DNA of 38,895 nt, taken from the sequence record SRR31156797_12445; one strand, 5' to 3'. The notes below the pieces were generated by a model. That model saw only the letters and a list, made by a program, of their open reading frames with translations, was not told where the DNA came from and searched no databases. Of the stretch, positions 3,004-10,970 are shown in pieces (position 1 is the first letter of the stretch; every line of letters starts with the position of its first letter). Both the position numbers and the translations under genes were made by a program.

Positions 3004-3357
3004 TTATTTCGATTCTTCTTTCTGGTCGGTTTTCATAAATGCATCGATCTCCCGGGGTGTGTAATAGCGAAAGCGTCTTCTTTTACTCAACCTCGCTGTA
3101 TAGTCGGAAAAAGCCATAACTATCTCTCGCCCCTCGGCCATGAGTTCCTCTCCTTCTTCATGAGAAATACCATCCATTTCACCAAGCCTTGCCTTAAAGT
3201 GAGTATAGGCCATGTCAAATTGGCGTAGAATATCAAACATGGTGGATCCAAGTGGTGAGTTGACCTTTAGCACACGGGCGCCCCGCTCTTTGGCCATGTT
3301 AATTTTCTTTTCCTGAATCTCTTGCCAGGATGGTTTTGAGGGTTGTTTTTCTGTCAT
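3004..3357 (-). CDS. Hypothetical protein, resembles the C-terminal half of DUF1845/AcaB-like ICE regulators
   Basis: Pattern VNSPLG..FDILRQFD......L....GIS.EE.E.L..GR..V..F recalled from DUF1845/TIGR03761 proteins; last gene of the conjugation-type operon. Confidence 0.45.
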   Translation of the reverse strand: MTEKQPSKPSWQEIQEKKINMAKERGARVLKVNSPLGSTMFDILRQFDMAYTHFKARLGEMDGISHEEGEELMAEGREIVMAFSDYTARLSKRRRFRYYTPREIDAFMKTDQKEESK

Positions 3358-4082
3358 AGTTGCCTCTTTTGGTTATGCGGAAATGATTTTTTTGTTCTTT
3401 TTGATTCGGTAACGATGCAAAAGATCCAGGAAATACACCGAGCCGTAGGGGAAAATTGCCGCAATGACCATAAGTATGGCGCCACCGGCAACAAGTGGGG
3501 CTTAATCTCAAAAAAACCATCATATATTCGTTCTGCCTTGGGCTCGAATTGCATGGCTACTTCCCAGATATTTTCCGGTGTGCTGAGTCGATACAGTACC
3601 AAGTAGACAACGTAGAGAATAAAGGCTTTAAGCAATAGAGACATGGCCCGACCCACCAATAGGGAGTTGATCGCTTTTCTGGTGATATTGCCGACGTAAT
3701 AGCGGCTGATGTAGCAACACATGGCTGTATTAATGAGCAATACAATGTAAGGGATACCGCCGAAGGCAATGCGGCTGAAAAGGTCGAGTTGTCTGAAGAC
3801 AAAAGGAAAAAGGTAGAAATGAAACACCGGAAAAAGCAAAACCAGGGTAAATCCTTCGTGAAACCCGCTTTTCAGTCCAATCTTGAAAAAATCGATAGAT
3901 CGCTCCAAGGTAAGAAATTCAGCAGGAATGTTTTGGCCTTTGCTTTCGATGACGTAAAACTGTTGAACCTCTGAAATAGCGTTCAGTAGATTCTTAGGTT
4001 TATAAATACGTCCACTATCGGTGGTGATGATTTGGGCATTGGTATCATTTGGCCCTTTATTTTCCCATTCTCTGCCCTTCAC
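3354..4082 (-). pseudogene. Element-associated multi-pass membrane protein, C-terminus shifted out of frame
   Basis: Several hydrophobic helices; near 3480 another frame gives AILMVIAAIFPYGSVYFLDLLHRYRIKKNKKIISA*, a more plausible final TM helix than the ORF-track tail. Confidence 0.6.
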
Positions 4083-5400
4083 TTGCTTTGCTCCTGGGAG
4101 GTGTTTTCAAGATAGGGGCTGACTTTGACTATATCACGCAACATCTGCGGTTTGGCTTGTTCCATCTCTGCAATAGAGCCAAAAGCCTCAGCATGAAAGG
4201 GGGTATAATAGCCTTTTATGTCTTTGCCTATTTTTCGCGTTACTGTGAAATAGCCACAAAAATAGTTGTCCTTGATAAGCCCTCTGGCAATGACGTCATG
4301 CTCTGCACGGAAATGGGAGACAATGGTAAGCAGTACCCTGCGCATGGATTCATCCCGCTGTGCCATGGTGGTGATTTCCATGCACCCGGCCTTTTCAGCC
4401 ATTTTGCGTGTGACCTCTTCGAGCACCTTGGTTTGAAAATAGACGTGACCATCGGACATGGAAAAGGCCAGAAATCTACGGCCAAACATCTTGTTGATAT
4501 ACGGCTTTAATGCATCCAGGAAGCCTGCAGGATCGAACCAGCTTGAAATGTCCATCTGTTGAAGCGATTCAGGACGTATTTTATTTTTCTCAGGAGGATC
4601 TTGATCGTTATAGATGTCTATCTGGGCCAGCTGATCTGCCTTTTTTAAGGTTTTGGCAAGCAATCCCTGGGGAAGTTTATGATGGAGTTTGATTGCCTGA
4701 AGAATCTCCTTTTTTTCGGTAGTTCCTTAAAACCAGTAATAGAGGCAAGGGGACGACCGGCAGCAAGTGGATGTTCTCCGAGGCTATAGAGGTATCCGCG
4801 TACGGATTCCAGTTTTCCAAGATCGTGGGCCAAAGCGGCGACCATGGTATCTGGAATTACATGCCAGGCCTTACTTTCTGAGAGGAGATGTACCACCATT
4901 TCTGCCACGTTGAGGGAGTGATCAAGCAAGGTTGTTTTCGCTAAAATTTGGTAGGTGTTCTCATCCCAGCCACCCTCCACATCACCATGAATATCAACTA
5001 CTGAAGGACAGTGTCCTTCTTTGTCCACCAATGTCAGAATCTGTCCACAAACTTTTTGCTGCTGTGGGAATTTTTTAAACCAGGCCCATGTGCGAATTTT
5101 CTCCATAAAAGCTGCTGCCCTTGGATCATACAGCTGTAACTCCTCATCGTTCTGAACACTAGGCTCCTCCGCACGCCATAAGGGAGAGAGTTCTGATATA
5201 TGTATTGATCGTCCCCCTTCCTTTGTCCATAGATTGGACAAATCACGCAAATGCACCTGCTGGACAGCCTGTTCTTTTTTTTTACCAAAAACTAGAAGAA
5301 CGATGATGATCATTATCAGCACAAATGCCAAGCAGATGACACCATCGTTCCAACCGATGTCAGCAAACCATATACTGAGACTCTTCATCAGCTCCAGCAT
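4079..5400 (-). pseudogene. HD-domain protein, MobH/TraI_2-type relaxase-like, split by a frameshift
   Basis: TLLDHSLNV and ALAHDLGK motifs in 4645-5400; the frame change at the T7 run 4710-4716 restores EEILQAIKLHH...LLAKTLKKADQLA into ORF 4079-4663; N-terminal TM segment; next to coupling protein. Confidence 0.7.
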
Positions 5401-6759
5401 TACTGTTTGGTGGAGGTGGCTGCCATTGTTGTCCCCGCCAGTTCAGGGAATATGACGTTTAGTTCGCTGTCAAGCACTGTGGCTGTCTTGCCTTTGTAGG
5501 TACCGGTATAGGTGTTCAGGAATATTTCACGGGGAGCCTCAGGATTTCTGTATGCTTGATGCGAACTTCTTCTGTCTCGCGGATCGACAGGCCACCACCG
5601 ACAGAGATAATTGGTGAAAACCGTCGTTCTTCTCCAAGATGTCTTGATACATAGCTTGCGGTGCTTGCATCCGGTACCCGCTTAAAGAGCTTGGTGTTAC
5701 AGTTGTCGAGGATGGTATCGGCGCGATCCTCTCCCACCTCGGAGTAAAGCTGGCTGATTGACTGGCAATATCCATGAATATAAACGCCAGCACCACCAGC
5801 TTTGGCAAAAAGGTCCTCGGTGTCGTTGTAGAGTACCGACTGGGCATCATCTATATGGAGCACGAGGGGAGGGGTGACGCTTTTTCCGCTGGAGTAGACT
5901 CTACCGACAAAGGCTTGGATCATGGAAATGATAACCTTGCCGGCAGTGTAGGCCGTTCTTTTGGTAAGCAGTGAACCTAGCTGCACCACCAGGATGATTC
6001 CTTTTCCCTGTTCAAGTCGCTTGATGAAACGGTTTTCATCAGCCTTGCCGATTACCTGGCCAACGTTGCAGGAGGTTAACTCTGTCAAGCCAACACGGAG
6101 CGAACTGGCCACTTTGGAATAATAATCCGCCGGAGTGGAGAGAATCTTCTGCATATCCATGAAAAGTTGTTCTGCTTCAGGGGTGCTGATGTAATCAAGT
6201 TGTTCCTTTAGTCGTTCCAGGTCCTGGTGGCTGATATGGTTTTTAATATCGTTAAGATTAAACGAGGGGGCTGCACCATTCACCTCGGCGAGCATGATCA
6301 GTGCCTGGACCACCGCTAAACTCACCTCATAGGCCACGCCGAAAAAATATGGTTCCCGGCCTACTGCCACACCAGCAGTGGTATGGGCAACAAGTTCTTC
6401 CGGCATGTAATAGGACGCAAGGGGATCGAGGATGGCACTGTATTGCGGAAAGATGGGGGTGATGAGCATCAGGTCGTGGTGACGGCCGGTAGCAATAGCC
6501 AATTGGGTAATTTTTGAAAACAGATCGATATCCCCTTTGGGATCAATAGCCACCACGGAATAGCCCTTGCTGATATCCTGTTCGATAATGTATTCCATGA
6601 TCCTGGTCTTGCCGACTCTTGTGGTACCAAAACACCAAAAATGGCCTTTACGGAAAGTACCCGGAAACCCCAACTCTCTGATTTTTCGGGCCGATCAAGA
6701 TGGACGCCGGTTCCTATATGTGTCCATAGGGGATCTTGCTTATTGTTTTTACCTATCAT
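5401..6759 (-). pseudogene. Type IV coupling protein-like ATPase (TraD/VirD4 family), two frameshifts
   Basis: Walker A GTTRVGKT, IDPKGD, Walker B LHIDDAQ, QSISQL, ILDNCNTK; N-terminus MIGKNN...PEK joins via a shift at ~6682-6686; C-terminus continues in another frame (REIFLNTYTGTYKGKT...KQ*) to TAA 5401-5403, abutting the next ATG. Confidence 0.85.
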
Positions 6760-7388
6760 TTTGATCCGTTGCCAAACCTGACCTCCAGCTTTTCCTCCAG
6801 CTCACCTGTTACCGCCAGGATGGCGGCTTTAGGTATTCTTTTGGAAGCGAGAACAAAACTTTTCCGGCCAACGTATCGCTTGATGCAGCGTATGGAGATT
6901 GTATCAGCAGGATGGCCAAGCTGCTCTTTAAGCAAGGCCTCAACCAATGTTTTGGAGACTCGGTCAACCACAACGTTTAGTCTGGGGGTGCCTTTAAGCA
7001 GCATTGGCTCGACTCGCCGGAGGTGAAAGGCCCGCTTCGCGCCAACAGAGAAACACGGAGAAGTCCTTTCGAGCACACCAATACGGTTCAGTGGGCATGT
7101 CGCAAGGGTCGTCTCACCGGGGATGACTTGTGTTTGAACGTATAGATTGTGCTCCGCATCGCGGCCTGTGACCTCACCCCAACGCAGTTCTTTTTCGTAA
7201 TACTTATAACGCGTGGTTTGTTTGAGTAGAGCGACTTTGGATATACTTTTTTCAAGCTGTCTTTTCAGGGTGTTGAGGCCTCTCATTCTCGTGAAATCAA
7301 TCTCGCCCTGCATAACCACGGCCCTGGTTTTATGGTAAGCCACGGCTTCAAGTTGTAGGTCATCATTGAAAAACACCATCACCGGCAT
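6756..7388 (-). pseudogene. NusA-like protein (partial NTD, S1, degenerate KH1), 5'-truncated
   Basis: Colinear similarity to NusA: EIDFTRMRGLNTLKRQLEKSI (linker helix), YEKELRWGEV (S1 start), VVVDRVSKTLVEALLKEQL, ISIRCIKRYVGRKSFVLAS, AILAVTGELEEKLEV. Confidence 0.6.
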
Positions 7389-8383
7389 ACTGTCGGCAAG
7401 TTCATTCGTAATAAGGTGCAAAGTCCCAAGCTGGAGGTGTTGGAAAAGCTATGCGAATGGTTGATTGAAAAAGGCGTGCCGGCAGAAACCTTGCCGGTGC
7501 GCTTTTTGGTGTCAGGCCCTCCGCTTTGTGGCGGGCAATAGGTGAGTCTGGCAAAGTCCATATCTATCTTGGTGAATACCATATTAAAGGGGAAACGATA
7601 ACGACACCGCAGCCTTCTCCGCCGGTATCGATTTCCAGGCATGATTCGGTTGTATCTTCTAAGATCATTCATTTTCTTTTTTCAGAGGCAGAGCTCAGCG
7701 ATCTCAGGCCATCTGTGAAGACGCTGTATGTTCCTTTCTATTTTACCCCGGGAGTGTTTGACACCGACGATGTGGTTTTTAAGGAAGATGCATCGCGTGC
7801 AAAGCAGATTTTTGAAACCATGAGGAAAGATCGGCAGCGTGATTGCTCGTCCATAATTGTCGGCAGTCAAAGGGTAAATTACCTGGTCGAGTATATAGTC
7901 GCTGATCTTTTTTGTTGTGACCCTTTTGTCCAGAATAGCAAAATGATTCATGTGCCATTTTATCTTTGCTACAGAAAGTTTGACCGTCTTATGCCGAGCT
8001 GTTTTGGTGGCGTGGAAAATCCACCAGGAAAAGATGATGAGGTTCTGCCTGGGACCTATTATTTGGATGAAAATTTTACCTGGCAATTTCTTGAGTGGAA
8101 GAGAAAGGAAACTGACGCAGGAATAGTGGTGATAACCAGAGAAGCAGATAATGTTGAGATGGCGGCGTTTGGTTTCTCAGGCCGGTCAACAAATGCAATA
8201 GGTAATGCTTTGCTCAAACAATCTCAAAACTTCTGGCCAGAGAGCAAAGGCGACGGCAGCAATACTGTCGTTATCGGTGATAAGGAAATTGGTGTCTCCA
8301 TCTGCAGCGTCACATTCAGCGAAGAAAAGAAAAAGGCAACTGCAGAGCCTTTGAAGATTATGAACAAGATAAGGTGGAAGTAA
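7380..8383 (+). pseudogene. XRE-type HTH protein with large C-terminal domain, 5'-truncated and frameshifted
   Basis: From 7380 reads HRHTVGKFIRNKVQSPKLEVLEKLCEWLIEKGVPAETLP; a one-base shift at ~7495 gives GALFGVRPSALWRAIG into ORF 7526-8383; no start codon for the HTH part. Confidence 0.6.
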
Positions 8384-9127: not shown

Positions 9128-9396
9128 ATGATTTAGAACGTTAATTGATTATGTTAGCTCCTGAAAAAATATTTAAAATAACAGATAAGTAAAATGAATA
9201 ACAGAAAAGAGACGCGGGATTGTGAGGGTGTTAAACTTATAATTATCTCTTTTGATAAATTATGACAGGGTAGCAATTCTAAAATAATGGAATTGTGCGT
9301 GCTTTTTAAGGTCTGGGGGCTATTCTTTGTCCAGCCATCTCGTCTTGTAGGGGGAGTGGTTTGCGCCTATCAGTACAATCTAGTTCACTTAACTGT

Positions 9397-9437: not shown

Positions 9438-10970
9438 TTAAATATCGAATTTGATTCCCTGTGCCAGTGGTAGAGTCTTGCCGTAGTTGATAGTGTTTGT
9501 TTGACGTCGCATGTAGGCCTTCCAAGCATCAGAGCCAGACTCACGGTCGCCGCCGGTTTCTTTTTCACCACCGAATGCACCGCCGATCTCAGCGCCGGAA
9601 GTACCTATGTTGACGTTGGCAAGCCCACAGTCAGAGCCTGCTGCAGAAAGGAACTCTTCAGCTTCTAATAGATTTTCTGTAAAAATGGCTGAGGAGAGTC
9701 CTTGAACGACGTCGTTTTGTAGTGCTAGCGCATTGCTAACCTCGCCTTTATATTTGATAAGGTATAGAATAGGGGCAAAGGTTTCCTCTTGGACTATCTG
9801 GTAGGAATTTTCCACTTCAGCAAGAGCTGGAACTACGTAACAGTTTGATTCGTAACCTTCACCTTCCAAGACTGAACCACCGTAAATTATCTTGCCGCCT
9901 TCCTCTTGAACTTTTTCGAGTGCGTTAAGGAAATCTTCTACTGCTCCTGTGTCGATCAAGGGGCCGACATGATTATTTTCATCAAGGGGATTTCCAATGT
10001 TCAAATTACCATAAGCCTTGACGAGAGTACTTTTAACCTTGTCGTAGATTGATTCATGGATAATCAGTCGTCTGGTTGAAGTGCAACGTTGTCCCGCTGT
10101 TCCAACAGCCCCGAACACGATGGCTGGTAAAGCCATTTTCATGTTGGCGTTTGTGGTGAGGATGATGGCGTTATTGCCTCCGAGCTCAAGAATTGATTTG
10201 CCGAATCGCTTGGCTATCACTTCAGCGCCGTGGCGACCGACTCGAGTGGAACCTGTGATTGATATAAGAGGCAGCTTTTTATCAGTGAGCATGCGTTCAC
10301 CAACAACGGAACCTCGACCGATAATCAAGCTAAATAATCCTTCGGGGAGGTCGTTTGCTTTTATGACGTCGGCAAGAATGTTTTGTACTGCGATAGCGCA
10401 GAGGGGAACTTTTGTTGAAGGTTTCCACAGGTTGGTATCTCCGCAGACGGTTGCAATCATAGCATTCCAGGACCATACAGCAACCGGGAAATTGAAAGCA
10501 GAAATTGTTCCAACTACACCTAAGGGGTGATACTGGTCGTACATGCGATGTTGTTCACGTTCAGAAGCCATGGTGTTGCCATAGAGCTGTCGAGATTGTC
10601 CTACCGCAAAATCGCAAATATCTATCATCTCCTGAACTTCGCCTTTACCTTCCTGTAAAGATTTTCCCATCTCGTAAGAGACAAGTTCTCCAAGAGCATC
10701 TTTATATTTTCTCAATTGGAGGCCAATTTGACGTACTATTTCACCCCGCTTGGGGGCTGGAACAAGGCGCCACTTTTTAAAAGCCTCATAGCTTTTAGAG
10801 ACAAGTTTTTCGTAATCAGTTTCCGATGCTAAATAAACACTAGCGATTTTTTTGCCATCCACTGGCGAAGTAACCTCAACTTCTCCCTGGTCGCAGGTCT
10901 CGTTCCATTCTAAACCGGTTGATGCGCCAAAATTTTTTTCCTTAATATTAAGCTGTTGTAAAAAATTCAT
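9438..10970 (-). CDS. amaB: ALDH family 7 aldehyde dehydrogenase, piperideine-6-carboxylate / aminoadipate-semialdehyde dehydrogenase-like (AmaB/Pcd)
   Basis: EGKGEVQEMIDICDFAVGQSRQLYG, SAFNFPVAVWSWNA, LELGGNNA, GTAGQRCT, SDCGLANVNIGTSGAEIGGAFGGEK, LPLAQGIKF, all ALDH7 hallmarks. Confidence 0.88.
   Translation of the reverse strand: MNFLQQLNIKEKNFGASTGLEWNETCDQGEVEVTSPVDGKKIASVYLASETDYEKLVSKSYEAFKKWRLVPAPKRGEIVRQIGLQLRKYKDALGELVSYEMGKSLQEGKGEVQEMIDICDFAVGQSRQLYGNTMASEREQHRMYDQYHPLGVVGTISAFNFPVAVWSWNAMIATVCGDTNLWKPSTKVPLCAIAVQNILADVIKANDLPEGLFSLIIGRGSVVGERMLTDKKLPLISITGSTRVGRHGAEVIAKRFGKSILELGGNNAIILTTNANMKMALPAIVFGAVGTAGQRCTSTRRLIIHESIYDKVKSTLVKAYGNLNIGNPLDENNHVGPLIDTGAVEDFLNALEKVQEEGGKIIYGGSVLEGEGYESNCYVVPALAEVENSYQIVQEETFAPILYLIKYKGEVSNALALQNDVVQGLSSAIFTENLLEAEEFLSAAGSDCGLANVNIGTSGAEIGGAFGGEKETGGDRESGSDAWKAYMRRQTNTINYGKTLPLAQGIKFDI

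Follow-up and report, generated by a model that had tools for sequence, protein, structure and literature searches.

Horizontally acquired operons can evade termination and silencing by means of specialised paralogues of the elongation factor NusG, a strategy that has been studied in depth. The accessory factors of the relaxosome and the coupling protein include TraM of F and TrwA of R388. Bacterial NusA is composed of an N-terminal domain (NTD; NusA_N in Pfam), an S1 domain and two KH domains (KH_NusA_1st and KH_2), as in the structures 4mtn, 1k0r/2asb, 1hh2 and 6flq. In E. coli, the flap-tip helix of RNA polymerase (RNAP) inserts into a hydrophobic pocket formed by helices α1, α2 and α4 of the NusA NTD, and the head of the NTD (α3, β3, β4) binds the α-CTD, according to Guo et al. 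(2018, PMC5842316). In the 38,895-nucleotide stretch of DNA from sequence record SRR31156797_12445, hereafter the window (the whole stretch that was analysed), an open reading frame (ORF) on the minus strand at 6756–7388 is, almost certainly, a 5′-truncated, promoterless relic of a NusA paralogue of about 246 residues. The intact paralogue, called mini-NusA here, is a protein of F-type conjugative elements, and its family is homologous to the NTD, S1 and first KH domain (KH1) of NusA.

A word-index search with the window ORF returned 379 homologues at E ≤ 1e-3 among 710 candidates. Among the matches listed, which are the best 120, lengths range from 206 to 258 residues, every protein is labelled hypothetical, and nearly all of the named ones belong to Desulfobulbales. 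An exhaustive search of 50%-identity representatives gave 104 clusters at E ≤ 1e-3, 40 at E ≤ 1e-10 and 6 at E ≤ 1e-30; the full-length members of such clusters have 236–323 residues and are 23–48% identical. No Pfam or NCBIfam model exists for this family of ~246-residue proteins, and neither the window ORF nor an intact homologue, taken as a single sequence, matches anything in Pfam, NCBIfam or PADLOC. Pfam scans of 76 single members gave weak matches throughout, to NusA_N in 11, to S1 in 3 and to KH_2 in 1. When the PDB was searched with a shallow profile of 12 close homologues, NusA was not among the matches, the best of which was a dynein light chain at E 0.41. With a profile of the 76 diverse members (alignment A2), 19 PDB matches were obtained at E ≤ 10, and 15 of these are NusA: the Planctomyces protein leads (4mtn, E 3.7e-9), followed by that of M. 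tuberculosis (1k0r, E 2e-8), E. coli (E ~2e-5) and T. maritima (E 5.5e-5). The PDB alignments run from profile position 5 to positions 218–220, that is, through the NTD and S1 to the start of KH1, and profile positions 5–47 fall on NusA residues 8–50. Aligned by hhalign to 22 host NusA proteins of Desulfobacterota, A2 scores a probability of 98.1% (E 1e-13) over 233 columns at 16% identity. A profile of the 40 most distant members likewise finds host NusA, at E ≤ 1e-8, in 44 of 401 Desulfobacterota genomes, where the ORFs are 416–573 residues long and are matched at profile positions ~57–223; short mini-NusA members appear with this profile in just 8 of the 401.

Predicted structures give the same result. 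The AlphaFold2 model of P0002, an intact homologue of 246 residues, was made with A2 and has a pLDDT of 96.6 and a pTM of 0.87. The Foldseek matches listed for this model, down to rank 20, are all NusA chains (best E 2.3e-14; TM-score at most 0.71 on the query). By VIA-align, it superposes on a B. subtilis NusA model with Z 16.7, on 4mtn with Z 16.1 over 224 residues, and on the S1-KH part of M. tuberculosis NusA with Z 15.2 and an rmsd of 2.1 Å over 140 residues. Residues 1–246 of the model align to residues 5–280 of E. coli NusA, and residues 1–98 superpose on NusA NTDs. In these Foldseek and VIA-align comparisons the identity between the family and NusA is 11–21%. A second model, of the distant member P0161 (25% identical to the window ORF; pLDDT 95.6), again has NusA as its top Foldseek matches, with a best E of 3.0e-13. 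Because the deep profile, hhalign and the structures agree over three domains in the same order, the likeness to NusA is real and far beyond chance. A language-model atlas places three clusters near the family, with proteins of 246–250 residues and no Pfam families, two of them mostly from Thermodesulfobacteriota and one mostly from Campylobacterota; below these it lists short clusters that bear NusA_N, which we note as leads only. A word-index search with the distant alignment A4 returned just two of that alignment's own members, and a cluster look-up of 10 distant representatives gave neither names nor taxa.

The NTD of the P0002 model has helices at residues 2–12 and 16–35, three strands within 38–65 and a long helix at 74–98. 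Five strands within residues 104–178 form the S1 domain, and KH1 consists of a helical segment at 182–199, two strands, one helix at 223–233 and a final strand at 236–241. The NusA_N fold of the family is thus recognised by profile, by the Pfam matches of 11 of the 76 members and by model superposition, and the S1 domain by hhalign, the PDB profile search and VIA-align. The KH1 fold is kept, and its GXXG loop is gone: over the NusA stretch dPVGACVGmkG the family shows 12 gap columns in hhalign, which cover the loop and one helix, and the model has a single helix where NusA has helix-GXXG-helix. The proteins end at about residue 246, directly after KH1, so that KH2 and the acidic repeats are absent. 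The inserted head of the NusA NTD is missing as well, in the model and in the hhalign alignment, whereas equivalents of α1, α2 and α4, the flap-tip pocket helices of E. coli NusA, are retained. Helices α1 and α2 are the best-conserved part of the family NTD. Mean pairwise identity in the family is 21% in the NTD, 28% in S1 and 35% in KH1.

Mini-NusA is therefore like bacterial NusA in the NTD body, S1, KH1 and the order of these domains, and differs from it in length (~246 residues against 416–573), in the trimmed head, in the lack of GXXG, KH2 and acidic repeats, and in its charge. The median pI of the family is 9.5 (7.4 for the NTD, 8.9 for S1 and 9.9 for KH1), whereas that of the host NusA set is 5.05 (5.17 for its first 280 residues). 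The two also differ in where they are encoded. NusA is a single housekeeping gene; mini-NusA is element-borne and multi-copy, with one to three full-length copies per genome in four genomes, each inside a mobile element, and an additional partial copy in G002. In three of these four genomes a separate, long host NusA ORF was detected elsewhere. Two cysteines of the family, C134 in S1 and C204 in the first KH1 strand of P0002, are nearly invariant, being found in at least 90% of members (alignments A2 and A8). The P0161 subfamily has an extra Arg/Lys-rich helix at its C-terminus (model residues 251–276; alignment A4), which resembles arginine-rich RNA-binding peptides.

The window ORF starts at ATG 7388 or TTG 7421 and ends with a TGA stop at 6756–6758. 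It corresponds to family residues ~37–246, with the NTD strands, the linker helix, S1 and KH1 without GXXG, and it lacks NTD helices α1–α2 and the promoter. Its best homologue is P0002, at 94% identity over residues 39–246; the homologue in locus L003, an intact Desulfopila ICE copy at 9893–10633, is 63% identical over residues 37–246. A sequence-only reading of the window, made without database searches, had aligned the ORF by eye with the NTD strands, linker helix, S1 and KH1 of NusA, had remarked that the GxxG loop and the second KH domain are missing, and had called for a profile and structure search with full-length homologues. That search is the one described above, and the family profile, hhalign and the predicted structure bear out the assignment as well as the two absences. 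The wording "NTD strands" was apt, as the window copy is without the two N-terminal NTD helices: the part similar to P0002 begins at residue 39 of that protein (window 7382), and family residues 1–38 have left no trace anywhere in the window.

The gene behind mini-NusA is nearly constant. A scan of species-representative genomes gave 75 mini-NusA loci, nearly all of them in Desulfobulbales and often several in one genome. Traced by tblastn with the window neighbours, the conserved order is mini-NusA, a TraD-like ATPase, a transmembrane (TM)-anchored HD protein, a protein of ~240 residues and a protein of 117 residues; a tyrosine integrase often comes next, on the opposite strand. The five module families are present in all 24 loci of at least 18 kb, and the integrase family is present in 12 of these. 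A TraD-like gene lies directly behind mini-NusA in 69 of the 75 loci, as conserved synteny with the coupling protein would require, and its start overlaps the mini-NusA stop in 66 of the 69. With the start codon nearest to the mini-NusA stop taken in each case, the overlap is 4 nt in 51 loci, 1 nt in 12 and 7–11 nt in 3, and in the other 3 the start lies 5–8 nt behind the stop. Four of the six remaining loci end too soon, and two have only a partial mini-NusA. The window shares this arrangement: positions 6756–6759 read TCAT (ATGA on the minus strand), so that the stop of the NusA-like ORF overlaps the ATG of the next one, just as the sequence-only reading had it. The mini-NusA gene is thus encoded beside a coupling-protein gene, and, as regards an oriT, beside a candidate repeat only (see below).

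In the window, the TraD-like gene occupies 5412–6759 on the minus strand. The earlier description of this neighbour as a coupling protein stands in so far as Pfam recognises a TraD/VirD4-like ATPase (TraG-D_C, TrwB_AAD_bind, T4SS-DNA_transf; NCBIfam SXT_TraD at 9e-46, below cut-off), and has to be amended in that the gene is a pseudogene in three frames, with breaks near 6670–6683 and 5530–5538. It aligns with intact homologues of 454–462 residues, and the TraD-like ATPases of relatives are 72–94% identical to it. Intact ATPases have 446–500 residues, with Walker A near residue 45, align to SXT_TraD only from profile position ~166 onwards and, by our own reading of the sequences, have no N-terminal membrane segment. 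The next gene, at 4088–5400 on the minus strand, had been taken for relaxase-like. It encodes instead a TM-anchored HD-domain protein (weak Pfam HD match) in which no relaxase domain was recognised; a frameshift near 4640–4717 breaks the gene into ORFs of 251 and 194 residues, whereas the HD protein of intact elements has 480 residues and is a single intact ORF in L003. It is followed on the same strand by the gene of the ~240-residue protein (3376–4076; frameshift near 3480–3498), which matches no family and has hydrophobic stretches by eye, and by the intact gene of the 117-residue protein (3004–3357), the last of the module, whose product is 91% identical to its L003 homologue over residues 1–114. 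A reading of the module as a defence system was rejected: PADLOC shows a generic ATPase match (mad8) and a weak Cas3-HD likeness, and genes of an F-type type IV secretion system (T4SS) travel along.

The DNA upstream of the mini-NusA operon in relatives is a divergent, variable arm with two unnamed genes (one Cas4-like) and genes for SSB, a DUF6094 methylase, an SNF2 helicase, RadC and DUF932. Between this left arm and the operon lies a 20-nt motif with an internal palindrome, GTYCRCNNNTGYGATTAAAC, which is present in 22 of 115 loci, once or twice, with copies ~170 bp apart and always on the operon's strand (in L043, at 9370–9389 and 9546–9565); it is absent from the window. We regard this motif as a candidate operator or oriT element. 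In addition, in 11 aligned loci (alignment A9, columns ~910–930) a conserved A-rich box followed by TATAG(G/A)A precedes the mini-NusA start by ~30–70 nt; this box is lost in the window. It looks like the promoter or leader of the mini-NusA operon. An Rfam scan of the window and three loci gave no match.

The window copy has been beheaded by a rearrangement joint at 7379–7383, with element DNA to the left and unrelated DNA to the right. The sequence-only reading had not recognised that the copy is truncated and its element decayed. When public contigs were compared over window positions 3300–7600, contigs of the related runs X2 and X5 were found to agree with the window either as far as 7383 only or from 7379 only, and to continue in unlike sequence; by our own reading, the minus strand of the X2 continuation spells the N-terminal residues of the family that the window lacks. 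X2 is from a related organism, ~5% divergent, and has 10, 1, 4 and 1 extra bases at 3480, 4709, 5538 and 6683, which are exactly the four frame breaks of the window. The TraD-like gene accordingly lies in three frames (residues 1–32, 27–412 and 410–451), the HD gene in two (1–255 and 230–478) and that of the ~240-residue protein in two (2–200 and 198–238), with the 117-residue gene intact. Assembly errors as the source of the frameshifts were rejected as far as the contigs allow: the independent X1 assembly, possibly of the same sample, is identical, and the other long ORFs of the window are intact. Through the joint the gene lost its promoter region and first ~36 codons, and the integrative and conjugative element (ICE) lost all that lay beyond them; the promoter-like box and the upstream repeat seen in relatives are absent from the window. 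What is left is a stump of ~7 kb, consisting of the integrase (220–1269), a Fic-domain cargo gene and the decayed module; no T4SS genes were seen among the window ORFs, where only the integrase-proximal part is left. Given the loss of ~36 codons and four frame-breaking deletions in three downstream genes, the window copy of mini-NusA is very probably inactive. A partial mini-NusA also occurs in locus L024, where the N-terminal ~148 profile positions lie at 3561–4061 on the left arm, followed by ~6 kb of other genes and a complete copy with its module at 9854–10627. Breaks inside or beside the mini-NusA gene thus recur, as in the window.

In relatives, the elements are complete. Each of the four host genomes has as many TraC/VirB4-like genes as full mini-NusA/TraD-like modules (2, 3, 1 and 2), and where both share a contig the TraC/VirB4-like gene is 33–53 kb upstream of the module on the same strand. 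The T4SS region of G003 contains TraE, TraK, TraB, TraC (E 6.5e-149), TraU, TrbC, a TraF-like protein and TraH. With an integrase, a coupling ATPase and a full mating-pair-formation set, the Desulfobulbales elements that carry mini-NusA are, judged by gene content, F-type ICEs. The family also extends to more distant elements. In G337, G385 and the metagenomic P0161 locus, members 26–28% identical to the L003 homologue still precede a TraD-like ATPase and an HD protein. In G033 the gene of the ~240-residue protein stands between mini-NusA and the ATPase. G082 and G180 have mini-NusA without a TraD-like neighbour, beside genes for a Rep3-type initiator, ssb, radC, an integrase, and sigma-like or ParB/KorB-like proteins. 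A metagenome scan with a single protein gave two loci.

Plasmid records gave no tblastn match with P0002, and with the distant member P0169 a match in 3 of 72,556. On pPRO1 of Pelobacter propionicus and pSD of Geobacter anodireducens, the order is a helix-turn-helix protein, a lytic transglycosylase, a hypothetical protein (mini-NusA), a TraM-recognition/TraG coupling protein and an HD-domain protein, the last annotated as hypothetical on pSD. TraF and TraH come next on pPRO1, and the matching pSD genes are annotated as thioredoxin and hypothetical. Mini-NusA is thus carried, as far as gene content tells, by F-type elements of Thermodesulfobacteriota, in sulfate- and metal-reducing hosts, namely ICEs among Desulfobulbales and plasmids among Geobacterales/Desulfuromonadales. 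In PLSDB the two plasmids are of type MPF_F and yet are classed as non-mobilizable, with no known relaxase by MOB-suite, and the DNA-processing proteins of these elements are therefore unconventional. The HD-domain protein behind the coupling ATPase (loci L116 and L117) is a candidate here, and may be the unrecognised relaxase or nickase of pPRO1 and pSD.

The described systems that come closest each share part of this picture. The traI(MOBH)-traD-traJ clusters of SXT/R391 ICEs and IncA/C plasmids have in common with the elements here a TraD-like ATPase, an HD protein, a small membrane protein and an F-type T4SS. The ATPase scores best with SXT_TraD and conj_TOL_TraD, below their cut-offs. Differences are that the ATPase here has no TM domain, that the HD protein matches no relaxase model and that the plasmids are typed non-mobilizable; we know of no counterpart of the mini-NusA gene in the SXT/R391 and IncA/C clusters. 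The accessory factors MobI of SXT/IncC, TraM of F and TrwA of R388 share with mini-NusA the position by the coupling-ATPase gene and a putative oriT or operator, in an F-type, MOBH-like neighbourhood, and have an unrelated fold. MobI is reported to be a dimer held together by two long helices and to bind the relaxase (PMC13635750). The NusG paralogues of the RfaH type, with UpxY and LoaP, offer a possible functional analogy, a private copy of an elongation factor at or near the head of a long acquired operon, as the literature on element- and operon-specific paralogues describes (PMC7593976, PMC7819879, PMC11685472). They are a different family: mini-NusA has no NGN domain, with no Pfam match to PF02357.

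The sequence-only reading knew of no characterised element-encoded NusA paralogue, and the literature that we searched likewise contained no description of one, although supplementary annotations might hold some. The family thus appears to be undescribed. What is new here is that the window copy is a relic, that mini-NusA and F-type T4SS genes are linked 1:1, that plasmids carry the family too, and which parts of the NTD are kept. A family of at least 104 clusters at 50% identity, without a Pfam or NCBIfam model and labelled hypothetical by current annotation pipelines, is tied to the DNA-transfer genes of elements whose relaxase has gone unrecognised. A mini-NusA that binds the polymerase would represent a new class of elongation-factor mimics; one that binds the coupling ATPase would be a relaxosome component of a new kind, with the fold of a transcription factor re-used for DNA transfer. 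The window copy itself is of interest only as a dated relic, in which the decay of such elements can be seen.

We propose that intact mini-NusA is an element-specific RNAP factor that competes with host NusA, and give this proposal a probability of roughly 0.4. The sequence-only reading had suggested a dedicated antitermination factor, or a NusA mimic that rewires host RNAP for the expression of transfer genes; its interpretation is supported in part, namely as to the paralogy and the element context. The protein would dock on the flap-tip helix of host RNAP through the retained α1/α2/α4 pocket, in competition with host NusA. Lacking the head that binds the α-CTD, KH2 and the acidic repeats, it would present a strongly basic S1-KH1 surface to the emerging RNA and would fail to support NusA-assisted pausing and termination. 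The polymerase would thereby read through the long transfer operons of the element, and mini-NusA would be the NusA-derived counterpart of the RfaH-type NusG paralogues of other conjugative elements. The proposal starts from what the family has kept and what it has lost: with the pocket helices in place and the head, KH2 and acidic repeats gone, the protein could occupy the NusA site without the contacts that enhance pausing and termination. Keeping the ancestral contact with RNAP is also the most parsimonious history for mini-NusA. The gene is the first or among the first of a transfer-related operon and has a conserved promoter-like box in front of it; the F-type operons are long. Each of the four host genomes has one NusG-family match (PF02357), far from the element, and no NusG paralogue is found near the element. 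Members of the G082/G180 type, which have no TraD-like neighbour and lie near replication, partition, sigma-like or ParB-like genes, also count in favour.

It is tempting to go a step further, with more reserve, and to see in mini-NusA a NusA decoy of Thermodesulfobacteriota (perhaps also of Campylobacterota, given one atlas cluster) that would occupy the flap-tip site, displace NusA and switch off NusA- and Rho-assisted termination and silencing on transfer operons. It would then be the first counterpart of the RfaH-type NusG paralogues to derive from NusA. Such a decoy might even link the polymerase, as it transcribes, to the coupling ATPase, whose translation follows directly on that of mini-NusA.

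Several observations weigh against an action on RNAP. The NTD, which would make the contact, is the least conserved domain of the family (21%, against 28% for S1 and 35% for KH1). Residues R104 and K111 of helix α4, needed for pausing, are matched only approximately in the hhalign alignment, by our own reading. That mini-NusA is basic and host NusA acidic fits a stand-alone nucleic-acid binder at least as well. On pPRO1 and pSD mini-NusA is not the first gene, since the lytic transglycosylase gene precedes it. Finally, adjacency to the coupling ATPase is the most persistent feature across deep subfamilies and element types, and therefore points to a role with that ATPase.

The last point leads to a second explanation, which we consider nearly as likely as the RNAP factor: mini-NusA would bind nucleic acid and work together with the TraD-like ATPase and the HD enzyme, as an accessory protein of the coupling complex or relaxosome. 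Its basic S1-KH1 half would hold the single strand or an oriT hairpin, the NTD pocket would dock on the ATPase or the HD protein in a new use as a helix-binding module, and mini-NusA would fill the role that MobI, TraM or TrwA has in other systems. The near-constant TraD-like gene behind mini-NusA (69 of 75 loci, with the start/stop overlap in 66 of 69) speaks for it, and so does the fact that the adjacency is kept, across ICEs and plasmids, at 26–30% identity in G337, G385, the P0161 locus and the two plasmids. All genes of the operon overlap, so that the overlap is not specific to the mini-NusA/TraD-like pair, and the two distant members G082 and G180 have no TraD-like neighbour, with G033 having an intervening gene. 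The protein is basic, with S1 and KH1 more conserved than the NTD, but the GXXG loop, the canonical grip of a KH domain on nucleic acid, has been deleted, and the elements encode an SSB of their own. The repeat that precedes the operon in 22 of 115 loci, a candidate operator or oriT, would suit an accessory protein, as would the missing MOB-suite relaxase of pPRO1 and pSD despite their MPF_F type. Known relaxosome accessory proteins, however, are double-stranded DNA binders of other folds. MOBH systems need an accessory protein encoded next to oriT, namely MobI, although the same source describes MobI as a helical dimer and leaves NusA unmentioned (PMC13635750).

A third explanation, in our view improbable, is that mini-NusA acts neither on RNAP nor with the ATPase but is a general RNA-binding or host-takeover factor, with effects on how stable RNA is or how it is translated, for instance once the element has entered a new cell. 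A basic S1-KH protein, with Arg/Lys-rich C-terminal helices in one subfamily and with members that have no TraD-like neighbour, would be suited to this. In Desulfobulbales ICEs, moreover, mini-NusA is divergent from the ssb, radC, DUF932 and methylase genes, and genes of these kinds are typical of the leading regions of plasmids and ICEs. Left unexplained are the complete NTD body kept in every subfamily and the near-constant position before the coupling ATPase, and the proposal of an RNAP factor remains the one that we prefer. That the likeness to NusA arose by chance or convergence, or that the ORF is a fragment of the host's own nusA, might be thought from the failure of the single sequence and the shallow profile to find NusA and from the 11–21% identity, but is refuted within what sequence and predicted structure can show, with next to no likelihood left, by three independent lines that agree over all three domains in order, by the same outcome for the second model, P0161, by the separate host NusA ORFs of 416–573 residues elsewhere in the genomes and by the 104 clusters of the family.

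The remaining features of the window lie at the other end of the element and beyond the joint. The tyrosine recombinase gene at 220–1269 on the plus strand, with NCBIfam matches of the XerC/XerD type, is the element's integrase and marks the element end; it is 82% identical to the integrase at the same position in L004, one that recurs in 12 of the 24 long loci. Between it and the module, at 1301–2419 on the minus strand, is a Fic-domain gene for a protein adenylyltransferase-like product (NCBIfam Fic models at E 1e-15, below cut-off). It is probably cargo, because it is rarely present in related elements. Directly beyond the joint, an ORF of 285 residues at 7526–8383 on the plus strand has no Pfam or NCBIfam match; slightly upstream of this ORF, at 7493, the relatives X2 and X5 each carry a single additional base. 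Close to the joint on its outer side, the 36 nt at 7430–7465 also match an 8-kb X1 contig with 4 mismatches, and the depth of that contig is ~37-fold higher (965 versus 26), which suggests a high-copy replicon or repeat in the same sample.

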